NCBI GenBank assembly: GCA_050012475.1
Contig: JBEKHC010000118.1
Location: 1 to 14,084, forward strand
Length of the DNA stretch: 14,084 nt
From: Candidatus Velthaea sp.
GTDB taxonomy: Bacteria > Vulcanimicrobiota > Vulcanimicrobiia > Vulcanimicrobiales > Vulcanimicrobiaceae
Reading direction: 5' to 3'
Position numbers and translations under genes: made by a program. Under the pieces are notes generated by a model that was given only the letters and a program-made list of their open reading frames with translations, searched no databases and had not been told where the DNA came from. Within the stretch, counting starts at the first letter, position 1, and each line of letters begins with the position of its first letter. Positions 1-13,863 of the stretch are shown here, piece after piece.

Positions 1-707
1 TCGACGATCGCGCGCGATGTGCGCAGCAGCTGCATGAGCACCAGCGCGATGATCACGCCGATGACAACCTCCCAGGTCGCCTCGACCCAGAAGTGCACGA
101 GCCACCACCACCAGTACTGATCGACCGCAAGATTCGTGATCGCCGGAAACGCAATCAGATACAGCCCGAAAAGTGGAATCAGATCGACCATCAGAACCCA
201 GACGATCCCTGAGACGCGGCGGGTCGCAATGGCCGTCCCGATGACGTTCCACAAAAATCCGCCGACGACCGCGACAACGCCGATCGCCGCCCAACGCGGC
301 GCTTCGACGTACTTGCGGCCTTGGTTGATGAACCACAGCGTAAACTCGTTGGCGGCGCCGGTTTGGACGAAGATAAAGACCACCGAAACGATGGCGACGG
401 CCGCGCAAAAAACCCAGAACAGGATCTCGCTGAAGCGGATTCCGACCAGTTCGCTCTCGAATTCGTCCGGCAACAGCCAGTAGAGCGATCCGAAAAACGC
501 CATCAGCAGCCCGATGATCAGCGTGTTGATGTGCAAGATCTTCACGATGCTGAACGGCAGCTGCGGGAACAGGAAATTCGGCGAGATATACATGATCGAA
601 GCCAGAATTCCGCTGGCGAAGAGGATCCCAAACAGAACCATCGAGGCGGTAAAGTAGCGCAGCGCCAAACGTTGGGACCGGTACAAGGTGGGTCGCGCGA
701 TATCCAT
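1..707 (-). CDS. norB: Nitric oxide reductase large (cytochrome b) subunit, cNOR type; 3' end lies outside the window
   Basis: Not in the ORF track because it is open at the window edge. Manual translation from ATG 707 (GGAG upstream): MDIARPTLYRSQRLALRYF...PFSIVKILHINTL...QGRKYVEAPRW...DQYWWWWLVHFWVEATWEV. Has the heme b His (LHIN) and the NOR signature WWxxHxWVExxWE. Directly downstream of norC. Confidence 0.96.
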   Translation of the reverse strand, partial: MDIARPTLYRSQRLALRYFTASMVLFGILFASGILASIMYISPNFLFPQLPFSIVKILHINTLIIGLLMAFFGSLYWLLPDEFESELVGIRFSEILFWVFCAAVAIVSVVFIFVQTGAANEFTLWFINQGRKYVEAPRWAAIGVVAVVGGFLWNVIGTAIATRRVSGIVWVLMVDLIPLFGLYLIAFPAITNLAVDQYWWWWLVHFWVEATWEVVIGVIIALVLMQLLRTSRAIV

Positions 708-722
708 CAGACGTTCTCCGCG

Positions 723-1316
723 TTATTGAGGTGTGGCATGCCCGAACGCGTTCGGGAAGCCGTTTGTATCGATCGAGGATAGCCACTTGAGATAGGCCAC
801 CGTCGCGCGGGCCTCGTCCTCGCTGAGGTTGAGATCCGGCATCTTGCGGTTCCAGGTGGCGTATTTCTCGGGGTGCATCAAGAACGCGACCATCGCCTCG
901 GCCCGGTCCGGCTTCTGCGTGAATGGGATCCAGACGTTATGCCAGGCGGGATCCAGCCATGCCTTAGTCAAGTCTGGGGCAAAATACGCACCGTTGCCGA
1001 AAAACGTATGGCAATCCATGCAAGCCCGGCTCTGAATGACGAGCTTGCCCTGGTGCAACAACGCCTCGGCTTCGTCCGCCGAATACTTCTTGCCGAAGAG
1101 CAACTCGGTGGCACCGATCGTCGGCACCCAGCCGCCGCGATCGTCGTCATACCGGTAGCCGATTTGTTGGTTGATGACCGTGTACGGCGGAACGTTCCTC
1201 CCGCCGGCTTGCATCGCGTCCAGTGAGTCAACCGTCAGGAAAATAAGCACGGCGACCATGACCGTAATAGAACTGATCGCGCCGGCGCGCCAAAACTTGG
1301 GATCATGGGTGAACAT
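723..1316 (-). CDS. norC: Nitric oxide reductase small subunit, membrane-anchored cytochrome c
   Basis: ATG at 1316 with GGAGG RBS (the ORF-track start at 1352 is probably too long). N-terminal TM helix, heme motif CMDCH, NorC-typical GNGAYFAPDLTK, axial Met region RKMPDLNL. Adjacent to norB. Confidence 0.95.
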   Translation of the reverse strand: MFTHDPKFWRAGAISSITVMVAVLIFLTVDSLDAMQAGGRNVPPYTVINQQIGYRYDDDRGGWVPTIGATELLFGKKYSADEAEALLHQGKLVIQSRACMDCHTFFGNGAYFAPDLTKAWLDPAWHNVWIPFTQKPDRAEAMVAFLMHPEKYATWNRKMPDLNLSEDEARATVAYLKWLSSIDTNGFPNAFGHATPQ

Positions 1317-1499: not shown

Positions 1500-2783
1500 T
1501 TAGGGCATGCCGCGCAGCAGCGATACCGTACGCGTTGAATCCGGAGGTTCACGAAAGCTGACGGCGCGGCACGCGGCAATCGCGGCATTGATGACCATTG
1601 TGGTCCACGCGCAGAGTCCGGCGATCGCCGCTCCCGTCAAGAGCGTGGGCCAATTGAAAACCAGCGCGCAGGTCCCGCTCGCAACCGCCCCCTGGAAGAG
1701 CGCAAATGACGCCCAGCTCAGGGGCGCGACGAGCAGTTCGCCCGGCCGCGTTTCGTCGTCGTCACCGCGCGCGACCGTTGCGATCAGTCGAATGCCGATG
1801 TGATAGAGATGGCCATTGACCATCTGACCGAGCCAGCCGACGAGCAGGACGTAGACTGCCGCTGCGCCCGATGACGAACCGGCGGCAGCGCTAACGCTCA
1901 GTGCGAGCCCCCCGACGAGCCAGCCCGCCGCGACGCCCAAGAACGCCTGCGGCGGCCGGTGTCTAACGGTCGCGCGAAACAAAATGTCGAGCAGGTCGGC
2001 GACGTAAATGAGCGCGCCCAGCACGACTGCAAGTACGCCGATCCATTCGACCACCGGTGTGCGCAGCATCAGACCAATAGCAAAGAGCACCACACCGCCC
2101 ATCTCGCAGCCGCCAGCCGCGCTGTGCGCCCACGGCCGGCGCGAACGGGCGCCGGTAATCGGTCGCACGGTTCGCGTCGAGACGCCCATAACGAGGACCG
2201 TCAACCATCCGATCATGCCGAATGAAGCGTGAATCGGCGGCCCCGACATAAGCAGCGTGGCGGGACCGCCGGCGGCCAGCGCCCATGCGAGCGCCGCACC
2301 GATGAGAACCGTGATGAAGAGCGAGCCCAGCGTGATGAGCAAGGCGCGTGCGATTGCCGCTTCCGTTTTCGGTCCCGCGAGTACGGTCGACAGCGTTCTG
2401 CTCGCCGGAACCAGATACGACGCCAGCGCGAGGACGATGAGCGTTCCAGCCCATGGCAACACGGCGGTCGCACCGTTCCAGAAGCCGAAGACGAGCACGA
2501 TGACGGCCGTCTCAAAAATGAAGAGCGCACCTCGAGCGATTCGTTCGCCGGTCCAGGTCGCGTCGGTAAAGCCGGGAATGACGTGAACGAGGATTGCCAA
2601 CGCCGTCATCGTCAGCCAGCCCAGCGCGATGAGGTGCAACCAACCCAGTGCGGGTGCTCCCAGCGTGAACGGACGGTGCAGCGCCAAGACGAGCAGCAAA
2701 ATCCATGACGCGCCGTGCGCAAGCTGTCCGGCAACGAGCGCAACGGGCGGTATCCAATGCCGACGGCTCGGGGTGACTACCAT
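1500..2783 (-). CDS. Polytopic membrane protein (427 aa) with repeated H...GW helices; NnrS-like or heme-copper-oxidase-like fold suspected, function unknown
   Basis: ATG 2783 overlaps the TAA of the upstream gene (TAATG). About 12 hydrophobic segments. Repeated motifs WLHLIALGWLTM, IHASFGMIGWLTV and YVLLVGWLGQMVNGHLYH. Confidence 0.8.
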   Translation of the reverse strand: MVVTPSRRHWIPPVALVAGQLAHGASWILLLVLALHRPFTLGAPALGWLHLIALGWLTMTALAILVHVIPGFTDATWTGERIARGALFIFETAVIVLVFGFWNGATAVLPWAGTLIVLALASYLVPASRTLSTVLAGPKTEAAIARALLITLGSLFITVLIGAALAWALAAGGPATLLMSGPPIHASFGMIGWLTVLVMGVSTRTVRPITGARSRRPWAHSAAGGCEMGGVVLFAIGLMLRTPVVEWIGVLAVVLGALIYVADLLDILFRATVRHRPPQAFLGVAAGWLVGGLALSVSAAAGSSSGAAAVYVLLVGWLGQMVNGHLYHIGIRLIATVARGDDDETRPGELLVAPLSWASFALFQGAVASGTCALVFNWPTLLTGAAIAGLCAWTTMVINAAIAACRAVSFREPPDSTRTVSLLRGMP

Positions 2784-3238
2784 TACTGCACGCCCGGCGC
2801 CGGATGCCGCGGCGCGCGCACGCGTTGCCAGGCTACGAACACAAACAGCGCGATGGCTGCGGGTTGAGAGATGGCCGCCAGCGCTAAGAGTGTTGCCGCA
2901 ACGGGCGCATTTCCGCTCAATTGGTTCCATGGCGCCGCTCTAAGCCGTAACACCAGGCCGCTGTTGAGCAGCACGAAGCTCGTGCTGACAGCCAGGGTCG
3001 GATATCGGCCTTGCGTTACCGGAAAGCGTTCCCGATTGAGCGGCAGCATCCACAGCGCGATGCCGATGACGAGGTCTACCAGCCAGCCGACTTCGCCCAG
3101 GTGCGCGTGTTCGACAGAAAAAACATACGGCACGGAACGGCCCAACGCTTTAAGCACGAGAAGCACACCGCCCAACGCGAACGTCAGCACGAGATAGACC
3201 AAGCCGGTTTTCACGAAAATACGCGCTTCGCGAGGCAT
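2783..3238 (-). CDS. Four-helix membrane protein (151 aa) with HAHLxxxGW motif
   Basis: Four hydrophobic segments and the motif EHAHLGEVGWLVDLVIGIALWMLP. Starts 9 nt after the ferredoxin stop; its stop overlaps the next start. Confidence 0.82.
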   Translation of the reverse strand: MPREARIFVKTGLVYLVLTFALGGVLLVLKALGRSVPYVFSVEHAHLGEVGWLVDLVIGIALWMLPLNRERFPVTQGRYPTLAVSTSFVLLNSGLVLRLRAAPWNQLSGNAPVAATLLALAAISQPAAIALFVFVAWQRVRAPRHPAPGVQ

Positions 3239-3247
3239 CGGTCACCG

Positions 3248-3487
3248 TTACTTAAAGTAGTCGCTGTTGACGCCCGCATAGTGCTTCCACTTTTGTGGGA
3301 TGTCAGCATCAGCAAAGATGGCTTCGACGGGACAGGCCGGCACGCACGCCCCGCAGTCGATACACACGTCGGGGTCGATATAGAGCTGCGGATCGCCGTC
3401 AGTTCCGTGGATGCAGTCGACGGGACAAACGTCGACGCACGATTTATCTCTCGTGCCGATGCACGGTTCGGTAATGACATAGGGCAT
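3248..3487 (-). CDS. fdxA: 7Fe ([3Fe-4S][4Fe-4S]) ferredoxin, 79 aa
   Basis: MPYVITEPCIGTRDKSCVDVCPVDCI...CIDCGACVPACPVEAIF: C-x7-C-x3-CP plus CxxCxxCxxxCP, the pattern of Azotobacter/Thermus-type 7Fe ferredoxins. Start ATG 3487. Confidence 0.95.
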   Translation of the reverse strand: MPYVITEPCIGTRDKSCVDVCPVDCIHGTDGDPQLYIDPDVCIDCGACVPACPVEAIFADADIPQKWKHYAGVNSDYFK

Positions 3488-3639: not shown

Positions 3640-4031
3640 GGTGTCGCAGCAATTGTAGTCCGGCGGCCTGTGAGGGTCATCCCAAGGCGTGACTGACGTC
3701 TTTTGCTGTGACGTCGAAAACGACCGGATGTATCGAGAGGGACAACCGCCGGCACTAAGAAGCCACGGTGCTGGGCGATGACCGAATAGTGCTGAGCGTT
3801 GACAGATGCTTGCGCCTTGCGGTACGGAAATGCGGGGATCGTGATTGCATAGATTGCGAACGCGACGATCAGCGTGAACCAGAACCAGTGACGCCGGATT
3901 CCGTAACCGCGCGCGGTGACAGCCGATTGTGCAAGTAGAGCGCTTTGCCGGTACTTGGCTAACCAAACAAGCAAGATGATCGCGCATAGGGCGACGATCA
4001 AAAAGATGTCTAAAACAGTCCTGCTATCCAG
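3640..4031 (-). pseudogene. Disrupted heme-copper oxidase subunit II-like (cupredoxin) gene
   Basis: GGAGG then CTG at 4031, two TM helices, then ...VPAVVPLDT. Removing one base near 3728 gives PVVFDVTAKDVSHALG (subunit II motif FxVTSxDVxH), followed by TGA at 3679-3677. Residual DPH/PDY codons follow in another frame. No CxExCGxxHxxM CuA motif found. Confidence 0.75.
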
Positions 4032-4076
4032 AGGCGCCTCCGTGGACGACGAGGATACAACGGGGAACTGCCCCAA

Positions 4077-4082
4077 AGTATA
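4077..4082 (-). promoter_or_regulatory. -10 element TATACT of a class II Crp/Fnr-activated promoter (predicted TSS about 4070)
   Basis: The plus strand reads AGTATA at 4077-4082. With a TSS at 4070 the FNR box centre (4111.5) falls at -41.5. Confidence 0.75.
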
Positions 4083-4104
4083 GTCGTCAGGCGGCTTCTT
4101 GGTA

Positions 4105-4118
4105 TTGATTTGAATCAA
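4105..4118. promoter_or_regulatory. FNR/DNR/NnrR-type binding site TTGAT-ttga-ATCAA
   Basis: Exact match to consensus TTGAT-N4-ATCAA, located between the divergent Crp/Fnr gene and the minus-strand nor gene string. Confidence 0.92.
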
Positions 4119-4163
4119 TGCGCATCAGCAGCGAAGCGGCTTAAAGTACACCGGAAGCGAGCG

Positions 4164-5093
4164 ATGAATCCGATCAATCCCGCACGGAGCCTCGACCTAC
4201 GATCGCTCCCGACTTGGGAACGTCACTCGCGCATTTTTGTCGCGTTTGATCAAATGCGCGAAGGAATGGCCCTGACCGTCATCACCGATCACGAGCCGCG
4301 CCCGCTGCGATTGCAATTCGAGCGGCTCTATCCGGATGAATTCGTCTGGGACCAGCGCCATCTGGGAATCGCCCGCTGGGAGGTAAGCCTGCGGCGGGCG
4401 CTGCCGATACCCGATCAGCGGGCATTTCTGCGACGTTGTGCACTGCTTTGTGACGCGAACGAAGAAACCGTAAGCGCGATCGACCAACGTTCGATCGCGC
4501 GGAATTTCAACGCTACCGAGGTGATCATCGAACAGGATACCCAGTGGCCGTATCTGGGGTTATTGCGAAGCGGCACACTCGCAGCCGTCGTCGGCGCAGC
4601 GAACGGTCGCGATCGGCAACTCTTCGACATTCTACCGGGCGACACGATCGGCGACATCGAGACCATCGACGGGGGTCGCTCGCTGGCGCATATTGCGGTA
4701 ACTTCAGCGGCTGCGCACGTCGTCTTGATTCCCCGTGGCATCGTTCTCTCGGCACTGCTTGAAGATGGAGTGTTTGCCCGGAAGTTGGCAACGATCTGCG
4801 CCCAGCGCGTGCGACTTCTAGGCGCACAGTTATCCCATGTTACCCAGCCGGCCGTTTCCCGCGTTGCGGCCGCTATACTCCCCTATGCGTCACCGGATGC
4901 CGGACTTTCCCCCGCCTTTGATGCATTGCAACGTATGACTCAAAATCAACTTGCGATCATTGCTGGAACAGCGAAGGAAGTTGCCGCTCGCGCCATTGCG
5001 GAATTGGAAGCGGCGGGCGCACTTCAACGCAACGAAGGTCACATTGCGCGAATCGATCGCGCAAAACTGCAGGCGTACGTGGTCGAGCAATAG
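4164..5093 (+). CDS. Crp/Fnr-family transcriptional regulator with N-terminal DUF2249-like domain (309 aa)
   Basis: N-terminus LDLRSLPTWERHSRIFVAFDQM...ITDHEPRPLRLQF...WEVSLRR resembles DUF2249. Central cNMP-binding-type beta-roll (ILPGDTIGDIETIDG). C-terminal HTH MTQNQLAIIAGTAKEVAARAIAELEAAGAL. ATG 4164 preferred because the ORF-track start at 4110 lies inside the FNR box. Confidence 0.9.
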   Translation: MNPINPARSLDLRSLPTWERHSRIFVAFDQMREGMALTVITDHEPRPLRLQFERLYPDEFVWDQRHLGIARWEVSLRRALPIPDQRAFLRRCALLCDANEETVSAIDQRSIARNFNATEVIIEQDTQWPYLGLLRSGTLAAVVGAANGRDRQLFDILPGDTIGDIETIDGGRSLAHIAVTSAAAHVVLIPRGIVLSALLEDGVFARKLATICAQRVRLLGAQLSHVTQPAVSRVAAAILPYASPDAGLSPAFDALQRMTQNQLAIIAGTAKEVAARAIAELEAAGALQRNEGHIARIDRAKLQAYVVEQ

Positions 5094-5213
5094 TACGCGT
5101 GCCCGCCAGGTCTTCGGACGCAGCTAAAGGTCGCGTTGGGTGGAGCCGCATTTCGTCAAACAAACCTCGTCGCTGCAAGCCTTCGCGCTATTGCGAAATA
5201 GCTATCCACAAGA

Positions 5214-5360
5214 TCAGTCTCCTGACTCAAGGGCATCGCAGCCGTCCCGGTGGCCATCTTCAGCTATTGCAAGCGCTCCGCAACTAGGGCAGACGAGATG
5301 GAGCCAGCATGCATCATCTCCCCCGGTCCGTGGCTGTGGCATGCACGCCACGCGTTGCAT
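5214..5360 (-). CDS. Small Cys/His-rich protein (48 aa), putative metal-binding miniprotein; start uncertain
   Basis: Manual translation MQRVACMPQPRTGGDDACWLHLVCPSCGALAIAEDGHRDGCDALESGD*. CxxCG knuckle plus CWxH and HxxGC. Below the ORF-track length cutoff. Confidence 0.6.
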   Translation of the reverse strand: MQRVACMPQPRTGGDDACWLHLVCPSCGALAIAEDGHRDGCDALESGD

Positions 5361-5412
5361 TATCCATCGACACTTCCTTTTCGAAATGCTAGTCTTCCAC
5401 TTCTGCCTTCAT

Positions 5413-6825: not shown

Positions 6826-7329
6826 TCACTTTGCGCGATCAATGCGCTCCGCTCTCCCTCGCTGGGCCTCGCCAACCGCATCTCGAATCCGCTTCAGGCG
6901 CGTTTCGGGCTTAACGGCCTCGTCGATGCGCCGGACGATGAAGTTCTGCCGACCGGGAGGGAGCGCTTTGAAGTCCCTCGTGGCTCCTTCCGCCCGCAGG
7001 GCGGAAAGTAAGTCGGCCGGGTACGTGACGGCTGCCCGGTCGAGGACTGTGATTCGCATATGCACCCGATCGCCGGTTTTCGTTCGCGTCTCTTTTCGAA
7101 CCTTGGCTTTGACGCGGATATAATGCTGGCCGCCCCCGACGGGAAACAGGCTTACCTTGAACGGCGCGGAGTCATTGAGACAGGCCATGACAAGAACAGA
7201 GCCGTGTGTCCCGAGAGCCTCGGTAATCGTTGCCGGAACCGGAACGGCGCAATAGTCCATTCCTTCCGCCCAATTTTCGAGCGTAGCTTCGAACGACAGT
7301 TGCTTGCCTGCGATAGGTGAGTTCTTCAC
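6826..7329 (-). CDS. DUF1905 domain plus YdeI/OmpD-associated (OmdA) domain protein
   Basis: FEATL...AVPVP...SLFPVGGGQHYIRVKAKVRK...GDRV (DUF1905-like), followed by PADLLSAL...FKALPPGRQ...IDEAVKPETRLKRI (OmdA-like). Confidence 0.88.
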   Translation of the reverse strand: MKNSPIAGKQLSFEATLENWAEGMDYCAVPVPATITEALGTHGSVLVMACLNDSAPFKVSLFPVGGGQHYIRVKAKVRKETRTKTGDRVHMRITVLDRAAVTYPADLLSALRAEGATRDFKALPPGRQNFIVRRIDEAVKPETRLKRIRDAVGEAQRGRAERIDRAK

Positions 7330-7568
7330 AGATGATAGCTAACCCAAGCGAGATTTCAACACTCTACGAGGGACAGCGGTCAATCCCCGGCCGTGGGGTC
7401 GTGCCCCAGGCAGGAGCCAATGCCACTTTCGAGGCGAAACTTGTCTGAGTTCGATCCGAGCTGCGATTCTATCAAGAAGGCGCTCCCTCGTTTCACGTCA
7501 ATCCGATCGCAGCGGAGCAGGTTGGTCCCGACTGCATGCCATCGGTGGGATCACAGCGGCCGCTCCTA

Positions 7569-7613
7569 GCGTAACGATCCGTGGCGTAACGATCCGTGGG
7601 GTAACGATCCGTG
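7569..7613 (+). repeat. Tandem repeat, 3 x 15 bp (GCGTAACGATCCGTG)
   Basis: Units at 7569-7583, 7584-7598 and 7599-7613; the third has one substitution. Confidence 0.95.
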
Positions 7614-7777
7614 CGCTCCACCGTCGCTTCCGCCTTGGGAATCATCTGCTGCATCGCAGCGGACCGCCGATTGCCGTCGACAAGCCGATTCCCGAGCCTG
7701 CTCCGTGACGAGCACTACCAGGTTCTCCGCGCCGAACGGTGGAGCCGTACTCCGTGAACGGGGCGTCTCGCACCACG

Positions 7778-9361
7778 CTAACCACGAGGCGATTTTACCA
7801 TCGGAACCAGCAAATGCGAATCATAGTTCGCGCCCGTATAGATCGAATGCCGCCCTCGATTGACCGTCGGCTGATGACGGAAGGCCGGGTACGCGTCCGC
7901 ATCTTGACCGAGGACGTCGACGCGCAGAACCGATCCCGCCTCGAAGAGCGTGCTGGACGCGAGGATTTCAACGTCGACCGCAACGACGTCCCCCGGCGCG
8001 ACGGGATCGGCACGAAGGTGTGAATGCAGCGGCATGCCCGGGCGGCTGCGTTCTTCGTCCATCGCACGATGCGAAACGCGCAGCCAGCCCTTCGCGACGC
8101 CGTCGCGATCGAAGCCGTTGTATCCGTAGAAGAAAACTTCGCGGCCCGTAACGTCAAACTTGCGAAGCTTTACGAAGAGGTCGAGGTCCGCGCCGCGGCT
8201 CGTGGCAACCCAAAGCCGCAAACACATCGATCCGGTAAGTTCGGTGTCCGTCGCAAAGCGATGCGCAAACGTCGCGCGATGGGGTGATCGGCGGCGGCGC
8301 GTTCCGTAAGCGGCAACAGAAACGTCGGTCGAAGGCGCAAAGTCAAGCGCACGTTGTGCGGCATCGAGGTAGAGTGGCACATACGTGACGCTTGCGAGCG
8401 GCCATGCGTCTTCGGTGCGAATACTCCACCGCTCGAGCGACTCTCGGACCTCGAGCCGGACGCGCGGCGTGTCCTCCCAACCGTTGGCCTCACCCTTCAG
8501 AAAACGATCGAAGAAGCGCCGCTGCATATCGCGGGCCTCCTCGCTGTAGAACGTTTCCCACTTGCGCCTGCCGTGGGTGAACAACCACTTCCGTTGCGAC
8601 CGGAGCGCTTCAAAGCCAAGCAGCGACCCGCGCGTATGCAGGCCGTGATCCGCCCAGCCCGCGCAAACGAGCGCAGGCACACCAATGTTATCGAAGGCCG
8701 GTCTTTTGCTCTTCCACCAATCATCCTCGAACGGCCGTGCATCGCGTTCGCGGAGGAAATCCTCGGCCATGGAAAAGCGCCGGTTGTGCCCGCGCCGCAT
8801 GCGGATGTTCCACCACGTTGGCACAAACCCCGACTCACGCACGCCGTCTTGATAAGCGAACTCGCGCAGCAGATCGGTGGCACCCTCCCACGGAATCATT
8901 GCCTTGAGCGCCGGTGGCCGCAGCGCTGCGACGTTCCACTGCGACATCGCCAGATAGGAAACGCCGCAAAGGCCAACGACGCCGGTGGACCAGGGTTGGC
9001 GAGCGCACCACGCGATGAGTTCAGCGTAATCGTGCGCATCCGTCGGCGTCAACACGCCGGCCGCGCCTTCCGAACGGTGCATGCCGCGCACGTCGGCCTG
9101 CACGACGTTGTACCCCGCGCGCACCCAGAACACCGGATCGGGCGACTCGAACCCGGTCCGACGCGAACACGCCAACCTGCCGAAGCGCACGCCGGCCAGT
9201 CGCATGAGCGTCATGCCGATGCGATCGGGCAGCTTGTCCTTGCCGTACGGCGTGACGGACAGGACGACGGGATGCGGCGCCTTATCCTCCGGACGATAGA
9301 CGTTCAAGAAAAGGCGCACGCCGTCGCGCATCTCAACGGCAACGTCACGCGTAATTTTCAC
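7778..9361 (-). CDS. CocE/NonD family hydrolase (peptidase S15-like)
   Basis: GTG start with GGAGG RBS. Motifs MRDGVRL, TPYGKD, DVRGMHRSEG, nucleophile elbow GVSYLA and GWAD, plus a C-terminal PepX-like domain (ELTG...DLDLFV...GWLRVSHR). Confidence 0.93.
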   Translation of the reverse strand: MKITRDVAVEMRDGVRLFLNVYRPEDKAPHPVVLSVTPYGKDKLPDRIGMTLMRLAGVRFGRLACSRRTGFESPDPVFWVRAGYNVVQADVRGMHRSEGAAGVLTPTDAHDYAELIAWCARQPWSTGVVGLCGVSYLAMSQWNVAALRPPALKAMIPWEGATDLLREFAYQDGVRESGFVPTWWNIRMRRGHNRRFSMAEDFLRERDARPFEDDWWKSKRPAFDNIGVPALVCAGWADHGLHTRGSLLGFEALRSQRKWLFTHGRRKWETFYSEEARDMQRRFFDRFLKGEANGWEDTPRVRLEVRESLERWSIRTEDAWPLASVTYVPLYLDAAQRALDFAPSTDVSVAAYGTRRRRSPHRATFAHRFATDTELTGSMCLRLWVATSRGADLDLFVKLRKFDVTGREVFFYGYNGFDRDGVAKGWLRVSHRAMDEERSRPGMPLHSHLRADPVAPGDVVAVDVEILASSTLFEAGSVLRVDVLGQDADAYPAFRHQPTVNRGRHSIYTGANYDSHLLVPMVKSPRG

Positions 9362-9796
9362 CGAAACCTCCGAGCGTTGCTGATGCCGAGAGCATCGCGA
9401 GGCCGGTTCGGCGTTCGCTTCGGACGCATGCCGTTCGTTGCGGGAGCGCGCCCGGTTTCACGGCGGGGTCTGCGGCAGCACGATCGCTTTGCTGATTCCG
9501 CGAAGCCCGCGGGGTCAACCTTCGGAACAGGGTAAACAGCTGCGCTCGGACGGCACCTTGAATTTCGCCGTGGCTGCCCGTTTTGTGAAAACGATGCTGC
9601 TCGTGGCGGGCGGCCGCGACGAAGGCACGCCGGCCTCTTCGATGCGCGGCGTCGACGCCGGCGACAAGGGCGGCTGCGGATCGCCGCGTGAGTCATTCTC
9701 AATGCGACTGAGGAGGAGCGGACCGCACACGACCGCGTACGTTTGCCGGATGCGTTCAGTCAAGTAGTCGAACGCACGCTGCCGGGCGAGGAGAGC

Positions 9797-10852
9797 ATGA
9801 CGAGCTTAACGTTGACACGCAGTCGCAGCAGCGCCGTATCCCGGCGCAGAGTACTATCGCGCGTGCGCCTCGCCGGGCTCATGGCACTGACGTTTGCCCT
9901 CTCATGCGGGGCACCCACGTTCGCACAAACTCCGGGCCCTGGCGGTACGGCGCGCGTCGTTCCGACGATAGCACTGTTCTCGCCCGCAATTCCGTACGCG
10001 TTATGCCCGCCGAATGCCGGCAATCGTCTCGCGTGTTCGCCGAACACCGACGATACATCCGGCGCCGGCGCGATCGATGCGATCCGGACGGCGGCGCTTG
10101 CGCCGGGCGTCGAACGCATCGTCTTGTTTCTTCCCGGCTATCGAACGGCGCTAACCGACGGTCACGCAACCGCCCAGCGAATTGCGGACATCCTCGGCCC
10201 GCACTTCTTGGTCGTTCACGTCGATTGGGGATCGCTCGGTAAAATGGCCGGCTATCGCGCGGATGGGGTCGCGGCCAAGCGCGAAAGCACGGACTTTGCG
10301 CAATTCGTGTCGGACCTGCATGCCGCGATTCCGCAGCGCGAACTCACGATTTTCGCGCACAGCATGGGAACTCGCGTTGCGGCGGGGGCGATGGGCATCA
10401 TCAAGGCACCGCAAGACCGACGGCCGTTCGTGACCGAAACGGTTTTTGCCGCTCCCGATCTCGGGTTGGGCGATTACGAACGGGCCGTTCTGCGCAATCC
10501 CGTGCCGTTCGGTCACGTCACGATCTACGTGTCTCGTCACGACAAGGCGCTGCTGGTCTCGTCAATCATTCACTTGGGGCATCGCATCGGTCAGCTCGCC
10601 GTTTGGCGCAAAACGATTGCGGACACGAGCGTCGTCGACGCATCTTCGGCCGAACCGGTCGGGCAAGGCCACGGCTATGCCCTTCACGATGCCCTCGTCG
10701 TTCGCGACATCGGAGCAGTGTTTTTGGACAGCGCCATCCCGCACTTGAGCTGGGCGCGGCTCAATCCGGCGTCGATCACCTGGACGCTCATCCCCGCCAA
10801 AATTCTGCCGCTCACCGAGGTGCGCTCGCAAGCCGGTTCCACCAGCCCCTAA
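9797..10852 (+). CDS. Exported alpha/beta hydrolase, DUF900 family
   Basis: ATG 9797 after GAGGAG. Signal peptide (SRRRVL...ALTFALSCGAPTFA). Motifs LFLPGY, DWGS, AHSMG, FAAPD, YVSRHDKAL and GHGY. Confidence 0.88.
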   Translation: MTSLTLTRSRSSAVSRRRVLSRVRLAGLMALTFALSCGAPTFAQTPGPGGTARVVPTIALFSPAIPYALCPPNAGNRLACSPNTDDTSGAGAIDAIRTAALAPGVERIVLFLPGYRTALTDGHATAQRIADILGPHFLVVHVDWGSLGKMAGYRADGVAAKRESTDFAQFVSDLHAAIPQRELTIFAHSMGTRVAAGAMGIIKAPQDRRPFVTETVFAAPDLGLGDYERAVLRNPVPFGHVTIYVSRHDKALLVSSIIHLGHRIGQLAVWRKTIADTSVVDASSAEPVGQGHGYALHDALVVRDIGAVFLDSAIPHLSWARLNPASITWTLIPAKILPLTEVRSQAGSTSP

Positions 10853-11233
10853 AGCGCCTCCGGCGCCGTCACCGTGGCGTTCAACTTTGTGTCCGTCTGT
10901 CCCGGGCTGCGCTCACGATCGTGGGGCTGAGCGCGCCCGCGGGTAGCGCGATCCACTGAACTCTTCTCACGTGCTCAGCAGCCGAGCCGAGTTGGCCGCT
11001 ATGGACTTAGCGCTTTCCGAGCCGTAACCGTTCTGCACCGGACACTCGCTACGGACGGAACACAAACGTCAAGATCCATGTGTTATAAGACGATTTCCGC
11101 GGCCGCGGATTCGCCATATGGATACCAGCATCGCCCAGCAAAGCGGTGGCTGCCCGCGAGCGAATCTCACGTATCTCGCCATCGATCTGCCGAGCAGCGA
11201 GCATCCGCGAGAAGGCCATTTATCGGGACGTCG

Positions 11234-11274
11234 ATTTATGTTGAGAGATCTTTCATTTACGTTGAGAGATCTTT
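11234..11274 (+). repeat. Tandem duplication, 2 x 20 bp (ATTTAYGTTGAGAGATCTTT), of the LysR gene 3' end
   Basis: Copies at 11234-11253 and 11255-11274 with one mismatch. The second copy contains the last codons and the TAA of the LysR gene. Confidence 0.9.
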
Positions 11275-12171
11275 GGCGACGATCAAAAGTTGAGCTCGCA
11301 GCCAGTTGTGAGCCGCATCGTCTCGCAGCCGCCGGTGCCAAGCCATACGATAGGCAATCTTGGGTAGTTCACGAGGCGCGGCCAGGAGGCGGACGTGGGC
11401 AACGGGAGCCAGTTGCTTTGCCAGACGGCGTGCTGTCGTACAGATCATGTCGGTGCGCGAGGCGGCGAGTATCGCCGATAGTTGATAGGGCGAACGATAA
11501 GCGACGCGCCGTTCGAACCCATTTGCCGCCAGGGCGCGTTCGATCCACGGTTGAGTACCATCTCTGCCGATAGCGACGACGGCGTGCCCATACTCGACGT
11601 AGCGCTTGAGGGTCAGGCGCGACGCACGAAGCGGATGGTTCTCGGCGACGACGCAAACGAATTCATCTGAGAAAAGAGCCTCACTTTCAAACGGCTCCGG
11701 CGGCTGGACACCGATCAGAGCCAGATGGATGCGGCCGGCTTCCATCTCGTTGAAGACCCGGTCGTTCCAGGGTAAGACTTCGATTCGGATGGACGGTGCG
11801 GCGTTTGCAAAATGCTCGAGCACGGTCGGAATGAGAACCGACGCGGCGTAATCGGTCGTTGCGATGTAGAGGCGGTCTCCGCTCGTCGCCGGGTCAAACC
11901 GATTGCCGCGTACCGCGGCGTCCAAGCGTGGGAGCAGAGCTTGCAAGTCGACGAGCAACTGATCGCCGCGCGGCGTTCGTTCGTACGCGCCGCCAGAACG
12001 GACCAGCAGTTCGTCGTCAAGCGCGCTCCGCAGCCGTTCAAGCGCGCGACTCATCGCCGACTGGCTCATGTCGCAACGGCGCGCGGCACGCGTTACATGG
12101 CGCTCGTCGAGCAGTGCGTAGAGCGGCTCGACAAGACTTAGGTCAAGGCTTCTAATATGCGGAAACTGCAT
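11257..12171 (-). CDS. LysR-family transcriptional regulator (NodD/LeuO-like substrate-binding domain); start 12171 or 12180
   Basis: HTH LDLSLVEPLYALLDERHVTRAARRCDMSQSAMSRALERLR, then LLVR...TPRG, FDPATS, TDYA and WHRR...DAAHNWLR. Confidence 0.95.
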   Translation of the reverse strand: MQFPHIRSLDLSLVEPLYALLDERHVTRAARRCDMSQSAMSRALERLRSALDDELLVRSGGAYERTPRGDQLLVDLQALLPRLDAAVRGNRFDPATSGDRLYIATTDYAASVLIPTVLEHFANAAPSIRIEVLPWNDRVFNEMEAGRIHLALIGVQPPEPFESEALFSDEFVCVVAENHPLRASRLTLKRYVEYGHAVVAIGRDGTQPWIERALAANGFERRVAYRSPYQLSAILAASRTDMICTTARRLAKQLAPVAHVRLLAAPRELPKIAYRMAWHRRLRDDAAHNWLRAQLLIVAKDLST

Positions 12172-12193
12172 GGCCTTCATGCCAAATGTGCAT
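12157..12193. promoter_or_regulatory. Two LysR-type T-N11-A palindromes (ATGC-N7-GCAT)
   Basis: ATGCggaaactGCAT at 12157-12171 and ATGCcaaatgtGCAT at 12179-12193, 22 bp apart, overlapping the LysR start and upstream of the divergent genes. Confidence 0.7.
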
Positions 12194-12239
12194 CCAGCGA
12201 ATGGAGTGATCCTGCCTATCGCCGGGAAAGACTCGAACA

Positions 12240-12620
12240 ATGGATCCGCCGAATCGGGATGTGGCAGCGCTTTCAGCGGTTTTTTTCAGCGGGCAGCGCG
12301 CCGGAATGATGCTGGCTCTCGGGGTCGCTCAGGTGGCGACGGCAGATCTGCCCGAAGAGAGTTGGATGTTGCGGCAACAAGCCGATGACTCGCTCTTTCG
12401 TAAGGTCATGCCGGTGGTGTTCGCGTTGAATGTCCTGAACCTGAGCCCGGCAATTGCGACATCCGAAAAACGCGGAAATCGCTCCTTCGGCGCGGCAGGA
12501 GCATTCTCGATCGGCGCGATTGCCGACACCATGCTGGTCAACGTGCCGCTCACTGTGACGATGTCGGCTTGGAAAGCGGGCGCTGCACTCCCTCTCTCCG
12601 CTGCCGGCATGCGAGGCTAA
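12240..12620 (+). pseudogene. DUF1772 (anthrone oxygenase-like) membrane protein, apparently degenerate and C-terminally truncated
   Basis: Motifs RKVMP and TMLVNVPL...W resemble DUF1772. The ORF ends at AGMRG without the usual final W...H/N..R helix and has polar residues inside expected TM segments (SGQRAG, AIADTM). Confidence 0.55.
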
Positions 12621-12622
12621 CC

Positions 12623-13483
12623 TTGAAGATCTTCGTTGTCGGCGGTACGGGACTCGTGGGTTCGGCTGTCGTTCGGGAATTATTGCGTCGAAACGCCGAC
12701 GTTCGGCTGCTCGTGCGCGATGCTACGACCGCCGTACCGAGCGGTGTCGACGTGATGGTTGGGGACTTGCTGGATCCGCCGGCCGTCGATCGTGCGATGA
12801 AAGGTTGCGATAAGCTTTACCTCCTCAATGCGGTGACGCCCGACGAGGTTACGCAGGGGCTCGTCGCCTTCGATCTAGCGAAGCGCCACCGGTTCGCGCA
12901 TGTCGTTTACCATTCCGTATTTCGCGTGGACCGATTCCTTGATGTACCGCATTTCGCATCCAAATTTGCGATAGAGTCGGCGCTTCGTCAATTTGACGTT
13001 CCGTGGACGATTCTCCGGCCGAACTATTTCTTTCAGAACGACGCGACCCTACGCGACCCGCTGACCGCTGCGGGCATCTATCCACAGCCGCTTGGAGACA
13101 CGGGTATCTCTGCGGTCGACGTTCGCGATATTGCTGAAGCCGCCGCGATTGCCCTAACGACCAAAGGTCACGAGGGTAAGGTTTACAATCTCAACGGTCC
13201 GGCGCTCCTCAGCGGTCCCACGGCGGCAGCCATTTGGGGCGAGATTCTTGGCCGGAAGGTGCGTTACGGCGGCCACGACATGGACGCATTCGAGACAGCA
13301 ATGCGAGAGCGCGCACCGGCGTGGTCAGCGTTTGACATCCGCATGATGTATCAGGGTTACCTCGAGCGCGGTTTCGCGGCGGAGCCCGGCGACATCGAGA
13401 CCCTTACGGCCCTCCTGGGCCATGCGCCGAGAACCTATGAAGCCTTTGCGCGCGATTGCGCGGACAGATGGAGAATACAATGA
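12623..13483 (+). CDS. NmrA-family (atypical SDR) NAD(P)-binding oxidoreductase
   Basis: TTG start at 12623 with GAGG RBS. Rossmann motif KIFVVGGTGLVGS, plus PHFASK, WTILRPNYFFQN, VDVRDIAEAAA and YNLNGP. Confidence 0.93.
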   Translation: MKIFVVGGTGLVGSAVVRELLRRNADVRLLVRDATTAVPSGVDVMVGDLLDPPAVDRAMKGCDKLYLLNAVTPDEVTQGLVAFDLAKRHRFAHVVYHSVFRVDRFLDVPHFASKFAIESALRQFDVPWTILRPNYFFQNDATLRDPLTAAGIYPQPLGDTGISAVDVRDIAEAAAIALTTKGHEGKVYNLNGPALLSGPTAAAIWGEILGRKVRYGGHDMDAFETAMRERAPAWSAFDIRMMYQGYLERGFAAEPGDIETLTALLGHAPRTYEAFARDCADRWRIQ

Positions 13484-13863
13484 CGCGCGTACTGTTTGTG
13501 GGCCAGGCTCCGGACACGGTGAATTATAGCGATCCGGCGCTGCCGTCCGGCATGAACGCGGAGAAGATTCAGGCCGGTATCGATCTTGCGGCAGCCAAGA
13601 TCGCGGAACGCGGTTGGATCGCGGACCTTTGCATGATCCCGCCCGACGCCGAGGGCCTAGCCTTGCTGGAGAAACAATTGGCCAGCGCAATCTACGACTG
13701 CGTCGTGATCGGTGGGGGCATGCGGTTGCCGCCCAAGGGCCTCATCCTGTTCGAAAAAGTCGTGAACGCTGTGCACCGGGCCGCACCAGGCTCCGCCATC
13801 GCCTTCAACACCGTCCCCGGGGACACGGCCGACGCTGCAGCCCGCTGGCTGAAATCTGAGTAA
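13480..13863 (+). CDS. Conserved-looking hypothetical protein (127 aa)
   Basis: ATGA overlap with the NmrA-like gene and GGAG RBS. Alpha/beta pattern with YDCVVIGGGMR...FEKVVNAVH...IAFNT..DTADAAARW. Confidence 0.85.
   Translation: MTRVLFVGQAPDTVNYSDPALPSGMNAEKIQAGIDLAAAKIAERGWIADLCMIPPDAEGLALLEKQLASAIYDCVVIGGGMRLPPKGLILFEKVVNAVHRAAPGSAIAFNTVPGDTADAAARWLKSE

Follow-up and report, generated by a model that had tools for sequence, protein, structure and literature searches.

A class-wide DUF2249–Crp/Fnr fusion regulator in the Vulcanimicrobiia and its predicted binding site

The window, a 14,084-nt stretch of Candidatus Velthaea sp. DNA (contig JBEKHC010000118.1, assembly GCA_050012475.1), encodes a regulator in which a DUF2249 domain stands ahead of a full Crp/Fnr body in one frame of 309 residues, as an earlier note on this DNA had claimed (Table 1). 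The protein represents a real, class-wide and apparently undescribed variant of the Crp/Fnr superfamily; a sensor role for its DUF2249 domain is plausible, and the FNR-type box beside its gene is a predicted site. Judged from sequence, the protein is most likely a local dimeric class II activator of an accessory module for respiration under low O2 or NO. The fuller reading, in which such an activator takes a metal or haem bound by two histidines of the DUF2249 domain as its input, is tentative, and we give it slightly less than an even chance.

According to the accessible text of PMC6282519 and PMC11218638, DUF2249 occurs in thousands of proteins encoded near denitrification or haem-copper oxidase genes and has no known biochemistry, in agreement with the earlier remark that DUF2249 proteins lie in denitrification loci. 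Hemerythrin and response-regulator fusions of DUF2249 are listed in the accessible text of PMC6282519, and a Crp–DUF2249 fusion is not named in the accessible parts of either paper; in those of PMC9758169, on the cultured Vulcanimicrobium alpinus, the words "regulator" and "Fnr" are absent. Our literature searches, which covered the main text of freely accessible papers, found no description of the fusion family, although a mention in print is possible, and databases already carry a two-domain label for it, assigned automatically. New in this analysis are the perfect box, whose centre lies 29.5 nt from a -10 hexamer, and the related box with the same spacing across the subfamily, which recurs at held-out sites.

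Architecture and distribution of the fusion

A Pfam scan of the window protein placed DUF2249 (PF10006) at residues 10–78 (E 7.9e-17; 61.3 bits against a gathering cut-off of 29.5), cNMP_binding at 113–198 and HTH_Crp_2 at 233–305, each above its cut-off, so that all three domains predicted by the earlier note were recovered, while NCBIfam gave no cut-off match to any named Crp/Fnr subfamily. The motifs it had described were also present, with LDLRSL for LDxRxL, RH (H21), DHEPRPL (H43) and RRCALLCD (C92 and C96), and the N-terminal four-cysteine cluster was indeed absent: C92, C96 and C212 are the only cysteines in the protein, which does not have the FNR-type set of three N-terminal and one internal cysteine. 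A full-length AlphaFold model built with 61 homologues had a pLDDT of 91.8 and a pTM of 0.85, the latter suggesting a fixed arrangement of the domains. Structure prediction, one of the checks proposed beforehand, gave a TusA-fold N-domain on a GlxR/CRP-like body, the best structure matches of the body being GlxR and CRP at a Foldseek TM of about 0.8. With a beta-barrel cNMP-type domain followed by a C-terminal Crp helix-turn-helix, the protein belongs to the Crp/Fnr superfamily.

PF10006 and PF13545 occurred together in 103 of 114 homologues, and three ESM Atlas clusters (51, 187 and 76 members) have the same architecture; these homologues and clusters, with the class-wide genomes, rule out a one-off fusion, a chance join or an assembly artefact. 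A search across the phylum revealed a class-wide family, with matches to the window protein at E <= 1e-30 in 323 of the 331 genomes of the window's class (289/296, 5/5 and 29/30 across three families) and, with the same query, in none of 69 genomes from 18 other families of the phylum. The survey set comprised 400 genomes of the phylum besides that of the window; its tallies include 12 genomes marked as unpublished, and those of core copies and of PF10006 include two (G128 and G233); the other claims do without such genomes. PF10006 exceeded its cut-off in 60/60 class genomes that are at least 90% complete. Named homologues come from Eremiobacterota/Vulcanimicrobiota or unclassified bacteria apart from a few records labelled otherwise, and those labelled as other phyla (L012, L022, L024, L059 and L066) hold one to three paralogues each, like class members; we make no claim of a spread beyond the class.

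The family comprises several sets of paralogues. A core paralogue without the His pair (G000:C49:21983-22927 in the window's genome, equivalent to L082:1471-2418; helix VRDMAAR) was matched in 120/120 complete class genomes, mostly at 69–87% identity within family f1, and adjoins rsmD-coaD-like genes, so named from reading of the translations; it is a candidate both for a global regulator and for a marker of the class. A second core clade, also without the pair, has the helix VKEVAAR and serS, hisC, smpB and moeA as neighbours, and a third, patchy set with RH...DHEP includes the window protein. The His pair is missing from the paralogues with the widest distribution, so DUF2249 must also function without it. 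The window gene looks acquired, since three congeners each have a single match to the window protein, the GC3 of the gene is 0.62 where that of the core copy is 0.82, and among 135 contigs longer than 10 kb the one that carries it ranks second lowest in GC. In a tree of Crp bodies computed with FastTree from 192 sequences, which remained of 379 after removal of those >72% identical and then of those with bodies >170 aa, His-pair proteins fell into several deep clades with unfused bodies scattered among them. With weak deep support, this tree suggests that the His pair is probably ancestral and was lost in the core clades; the scattered unfused bodies can reflect loss of DUF2249 or mis-called genes. 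In locus L120, three paralogous DUF2249-Crp genes whose recognition helices differ share about 10 kb of sequence. A GAGTAGAGCGCTCTACTC palindrome precedes His-less clade genes (L006-L080) in about 40% of 45 regions, which kinship may explain.

Table 1. Features of the window at and around the fusion gene (a dot marks a feature without strand)
Feature	Position	Strand	Remark
NorB-like NO reductase subunit, helix VI HFWVE	1..707	-	cut by contig start
NorC-like c-type cytochrome (CxxCH)	723..1316	-	184-nt gap upstream
Large hydrophobic membrane protein	1500..2783	-	present near 10/32 His-pair loci
Small membrane protein, stop overlaps next start	2783..3238	-	present near 7/32 His-pair loci
FdxA-like dicluster ferredoxin	3248..3487	-	present near 15/32 His-pair loci
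Decayed CoxII-like gene, frameshift and stop	3678..4016	-	50% identity to L128 protein, E 4e-34
-10-like hexamer TATACT, 29.5 nt from box centre	4077..4082	-	divergent operon
Perfect FNR-type box TTGAT-N4-ATCAA	4105..4118	.	predicted regulator site
-10-like hexamer TAAAGT, 30.5 nt from box centre towards regulator	4142..4147	+	possible autoregulation
DUF2249-Crp/Fnr fusion regulator, 309 aa	4164..5093	+	single open frame; AlphaFold; best folds GlxR/CRP
DUF2249 domain, residues 10-78, TusA/SirA-like fold, no Cys	4191..4397	+	Pfam, structure prediction
H21 codon	4224-4226	+	inside DUF2249 domain
H43 codon	4290-4292	+	inside DUF2249 domain
C92-x3-C96	4437..4451	+	not conserved, not considered functional
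cNMP-type effector domain without cAMP-binding Arg (S173) and Glu (D164)	4500..4757	+	Pfam, profile alignment
Crp helix-turn-helix, recognition helix K271-E272-V-A-A-R276	4860..5078	+	Pfam, alignment

Gene neighbourhood and the predicted box

The genes divergent from the regulator are, in order, the decayed CoxII-like gene, the ferredoxin gene, two coupled membrane genes, norC and norB. Homologues of the decayed product are subunit II proteins that partner Tyr-less haem-copper enzymes in related loci, and a tblastn search of the window's genome did not find the partner Tyr-less subunit I; the decayed subunit II beside the downstream cNOR-type pair suggests that one NO-reductase type has replaced another. 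The unannotated membrane pair at 1500-3238 (minus strand) recurs in His-pair loci and is putatively oxidase-like. A homologue of the small protein has a weak COX1 match (E 9.4e-5), and the large protein, for which no Pfam or PDB match was found, has invariant histidines H22, H157, H192, H297 and H300 in the numbering of alignment A3. The window's genome, which is 94% complete, yielded no nirK, nirS or narG above cut-off, so its NO reductase is more likely used for detoxification. Ordinary genes (DUF1905-OmdA, S15 peptidase, DUF900 hydrolase, LysR regulator and NmrA-like reductase) occupy 6826-13863.

We compared 121 loci, consisting of 40 around high-scoring genome matches, 80 homologue loci and the window; the near-duplicate L003 was dropped and three loci were relabelled His-pair from the alignment. 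A COX1-family gene (haem-copper oxidase/NO-reductase subunit I) lay within 6 kb in 20/32 His-pair loci, 0/77 loci of the His-less clade, which may include one duplicate, and 1/11 others; for any module gene the counts were 31/32, 0/77 and 3/11, with profiles built from the His-pair loci themselves and with kin that are not independent. The strict rule that a His pair means an oxidase neighbourhood is ruled out by the core copies of family f3, which keep both histidines in 5/10 cases and have module genes within about 6 kb in 0/10 (0/20 for core loci), so the link between His pair and neighbourhood is partly clade history. Classified by active-site motif, subunit I was of the A-family in seven loci, cbb3-type in five, Tyr-less with H-x-x-x-N in helix VI in eight and cNOR-type in one, the window, with both kinds in two. 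Since O2 reductases (12/32 His-pair loci) are at least as frequent as NO-reductase types (9/32), the signal need not be NO; the neighbours fit either gas, and the two cannot be told apart as signals.

The H-x-x-x-N form goes by the label sNOR. A missing Tyr is a mark of NO-reductase candidates in the accessible text of PMC11214002. The eight loci concerned (L114, L117, L122-L125, L128 and L140) encode a subunit I of about 475 aa with this helix VI and a CuA-type subunit II, which makes B-family-derived NO reductases probable in the class. All seven A-family loci (L002, L121, L130, L134, L139, L142 and L146) have a CoxI without a called CoxII-motif gene in the fetched locus, and an orphan, swappable subunit I under the fusion regulator is possible there.

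The box at 4105-4118 is likely the binding site of the fusion regulator. Perfect copies of it number three in the 5.36 Mb genome, and locus L001 has the identical box at the identical offset. Class II activators act from about -41.5, and the spacing to TATACT has this geometry for the divergent operon, whose transcription start is predicted near 4070. The spacing to TAAAGT, which would allow autoregulation, is not conserved (28–31 nt in 1/16 loci, the window alone) and was rejected; a sigma-70 scan of 3900-5400 found no -35/-10 promoter. A first motif search in 150-nt upstream regions was discarded because of coding-sequence contamination and repeated on intergenic DNA. Expectation maximization on 24 intergenic regions picked for divergent arrangement (20 His-pair, 4 other) returned the subfamily motif cantgACCnnGGTcantg with a log-likelihood of 63.7, against 27.5–36.5 in eight dinucleotide shuffles run with fewer starts. 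TAnnnT followed 28.5–30.5 nt downstream of the box centre in 14/24 regions compared with 5/1224 background positions, this spacing being absent from 10/24 training regions, and several target start codons lie 41.5–42.5 nt from the box, as expected of leaderless class II promoters. Held-out sites with box and -10 numbered 24 in 412,730 bp (32 His-pair loci) versus 8 in 1,334,278 bp (77 His-less loci), and all but one of the former (23 of 24) fall between genes, in front of those for oxidase subunits, ferredoxin or stand-alone DUF2249 proteins. Within the window's genome no genome-wide regulon with the box was found, the spacing occurring in 12/428 sites, near chance, which favours a local regulator; no box was detected in the gap before norC.

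The DUF2249 domain and its histidine pair

Modelled in isolation, the N-domain reached a pLDDT of 95.5 and matched SirA-like 3hz7 (Z 9.9, rmsd 1.8, 69 aligned), TusA 3lvj (Z 9.5) and YeeD 8j4c (Z 9.5), together spanning Z 9.5–9.9 and rmsd 1.7–2.1 A over 69/72 residues; below them ranked one small protein at 8.5 and the remainder at 7.7 or less. Foldseek with the N-domain gave no match at E <= 0.001, and a PDB sequence search with its profile gave none. TusA sulfurtransferases carry a persulfide on the Cys of a CPxP motif. The N-domain shares the fold of TusA, SirA and YeeD but has the His pair and no cysteine within residues 8–79, so it is incapable of persulfide carriage, and a TusA-type sulfur carrier is ruled out.

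Among 111 non-redundant fused proteins, H21 and H43 are both present in 54 and both missing in 44 (H43 alone in 10, H21 alone in 3), which makes 98/111 both-or-neither, and they are the sole His/Cys/Met columns that separate the His-pair subfamily from other fused relatives, bearing out the attention that the earlier note had paid to them. The other Cys/His/Met columns reaching at least 50% in the His-pair set are C92 (33/54), M258 and H293, the last two equally common elsewhere. H21 opens helix 1 and H43 follows strand 2 in a loop; with this topology both would be expected at one end of the sheet. For 33 His-pair proteins, mean pairwise identity of the DUF2249, effector and HTH domains was 53/38/59%, and for the two core clades it was 55/52/77% (74 proteins) and 70/74/85% (32 proteins); thus DUF2249 is better conserved than the effector domain in the His-pair subfamily, and the core clades differ.

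Proposed function and competing readings

From Crp/Fnr biology, a dimer of the fusion regulator would bind the TTGAT-N4-ATCAA box next to its gene and, when oxygen is low or NO is present, would activate the divergent ferredoxin and membrane-protein genes, and possibly the NO-reductase genes, in the class II manner. Elimination and conservation suggest that DUF2249 docks onto the Crp body to gate it, with R65, W128 and R149 as predicted interface residues, and that His21 and His43 would bind a metal or haem cofactor, the predicted input. We place the input there because none of the known inputs is present in the body, the least conserved part, whereas the His pair is co-conserved and recurs in the free DUF2249 proteins encoded in 11/32 His-pair loci. 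Points against this overall reading are the universal His-less paralogues, the f3 core copies that keep both histidines beside no module genes, the training regions without the -10 spacing, the scattered unfused bodies, the decay of the first target gene, the norC gap without a box, the genome without nirK, nirS or narG above cut-off and 11 other Crp-type genes in the window's genome that are capable of binding the box. The interpretation offered in the earlier note survived in domain identity, His pair and NO-reductase/oxidase context; the CxxxC that it had pointed out found no support as a sensor.

A serious though unlikely alternative keeps the activator and its box and makes DUF2249 a cofactor-free contact module, which holds the Crp body back or licenses it until partners such as the stand-alone DUF2249 proteins of the regulon displace it. 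It would be the fused version of the DrpB-DnrT interaction, since DrpB is proposed in the accessible text of PMC6282519 to act on DnrT or DnrS by binding or by control of degradation. The TusA fold is a protein-contact fold, seen in TusA bound to IscS (3lvj), R65 and W72 are conserved in the His-pair and His-less clades alike, and the His-less core paralogues retain the domain at the 70% identity given above. A pure contact role nevertheless sits poorly with the co-variation of H21 and H43, which are far apart in sequence, and the window's genome has no stand-alone DUF2249 partner, both of its PF10006 matches being fusions.

Rather less probable is that the Crp body itself senses, with either a small ligand or, like DNR, haem, or that nothing is sensed and activity tracks protein level as with DnrT or FixK, DUF2249 being a structural passenger inherited from the core gene. 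Unfused relatives of 230–250 aa inside the family tree, the insensitivity of DnrT to O2 and nitrate (accessible text of PMC6282519) and the retention of C92 in the majority of His-pair proteins and of C212 in 24/54 are compatible with this, but in this subfamily no other part is as poorly conserved as the effector domain, which has no subfamily-specific His, Cys or Met column. In a profile alignment to GlxR, Thr/Ser (Ser in the window protein) takes the position of the cAMP-binding Arg and Asp that of the Glu, and the missing phosphate-binding-cassette Arg rules out a cAMP receptor; a pairwise alignment to 4ev0 shifted the register by one to R172, which is kept in 21/54. By sequence search the body matched GlxR/CRP at E 3e-24 and DNR (3dkw) weakly at E 7.5e-7, and the tree was built without named DNR or DnrT sequences.

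It is very doubtful that the box is owned by another Crp/Fnr protein and that the fusion gene is a co-regulated passenger. This reading draws on the 11 other Crp-type genes and on K271, which stands where CRP has Arg and FNR has Val. COG4309 corresponds to DUF2249. The passenger reading also draws on the box itself, for in the accessible text of PMC1274295 TTGAT-N4-ATCAA is the textbook FNR/DNR consensus. The same text places COG4309 genes with nor genes. Against the passenger reading, the motif follows the subfamily about tenfold over control loci, the window's genome has no global regulon, and half-sites ending in T are found in 6/10 cases beside AKEVAAR helices versus 8/66 beside other helices, a weak signal from related lineages. 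By reading, none of the 11 other Crp-type genes has an FNR-type helix.

That C92 and C96 form Fe-S cluster ligands or an FNR-like redox switch is almost certainly wrong: the CxxxC exists in the window protein, but its place is the first helix-loop of the Crp domain, an ordinary element that is free of Cys in GlxR and CRP, instead of the junction as first described, and both cysteines occur together in only 6/111 non-redundant fused relatives (C92 in 81/115 and C96 in 17/115 of the homologue alignment), which rules out CxxxC as a sensor.

The activator with a His-bound cofactor as its input resembles several known systems in part. Regulators of the DNR/NnrR/DnrT group have a recognition helix of the E-x-x-S-R type, whereas that of the window protein is K-E-V-x-x-R; the window sequence is also nearer to GlxR/CRP than to DNR and has the extra N-terminal DUF2249 domain, and the family box is mostly TGAC/TAAC where that group has TGAT. 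Shared with the group are a Crp body without FNR cysteines or a cAMP site, an FNR-type box (accessible text of PMC1274295) and targets that include NO reductase types, cbb3 oxidase and DUF2249 genes. In sequence and in structure the body is matched best by GlxR and CRP, which differ from it at the cAMP-binding residues. FNR has a box identical to that of the window with class II spacing, and differs from the window protein, whose three cysteines are nowhere invariant, in its N-terminal cysteine cluster. In Thermus thermophilus, DrpA and DrpB likewise tie DUF2249 to a Crp-like activator, DnrT, and to respiratory genes; according to the accessible text of PMC6282519, DrpA is a single domain reported as periplasmic, DrpB combines DUF1858 with two DUF2249 domains, and neither binds DNA. 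The DrpA-type His is noted in the accessible text of PMC11218638. Here, in contrast to DrpA and DrpB, DUF2249 is covalently part of the activator itself, and a search of the genome turned up no nitrate reductase.

Extended to the whole class, DUF2249 might be a His-ligated metal or haem sensor of gas or redox state on a TusA fold, wired onto Crp/Fnr regulators whose accessory copies use a box of their own to run NO-reductase/oxidase modules, and the fusion might be a Rosetta stone for the control of Crp activators by free DrpA/DrpB-type proteins; this generalization is speculative, and we consider it possible but somewhat unlikely. A one-component regulator with a predicted box makes the question of DUF2249 function assayable, with His-pair and His-less proteins as natural controls. 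If the proposed reading is true, DUF2249 would be a new input domain for the Crp/Fnr family, and the proposed DrpB-DnrT link would become testable. For the Vulcanimicrobiia, the fusion and its box would then be the first regulator-box pair for low-O2/NO genes, and the conserved paralogue would serve there as a class-wide marker.
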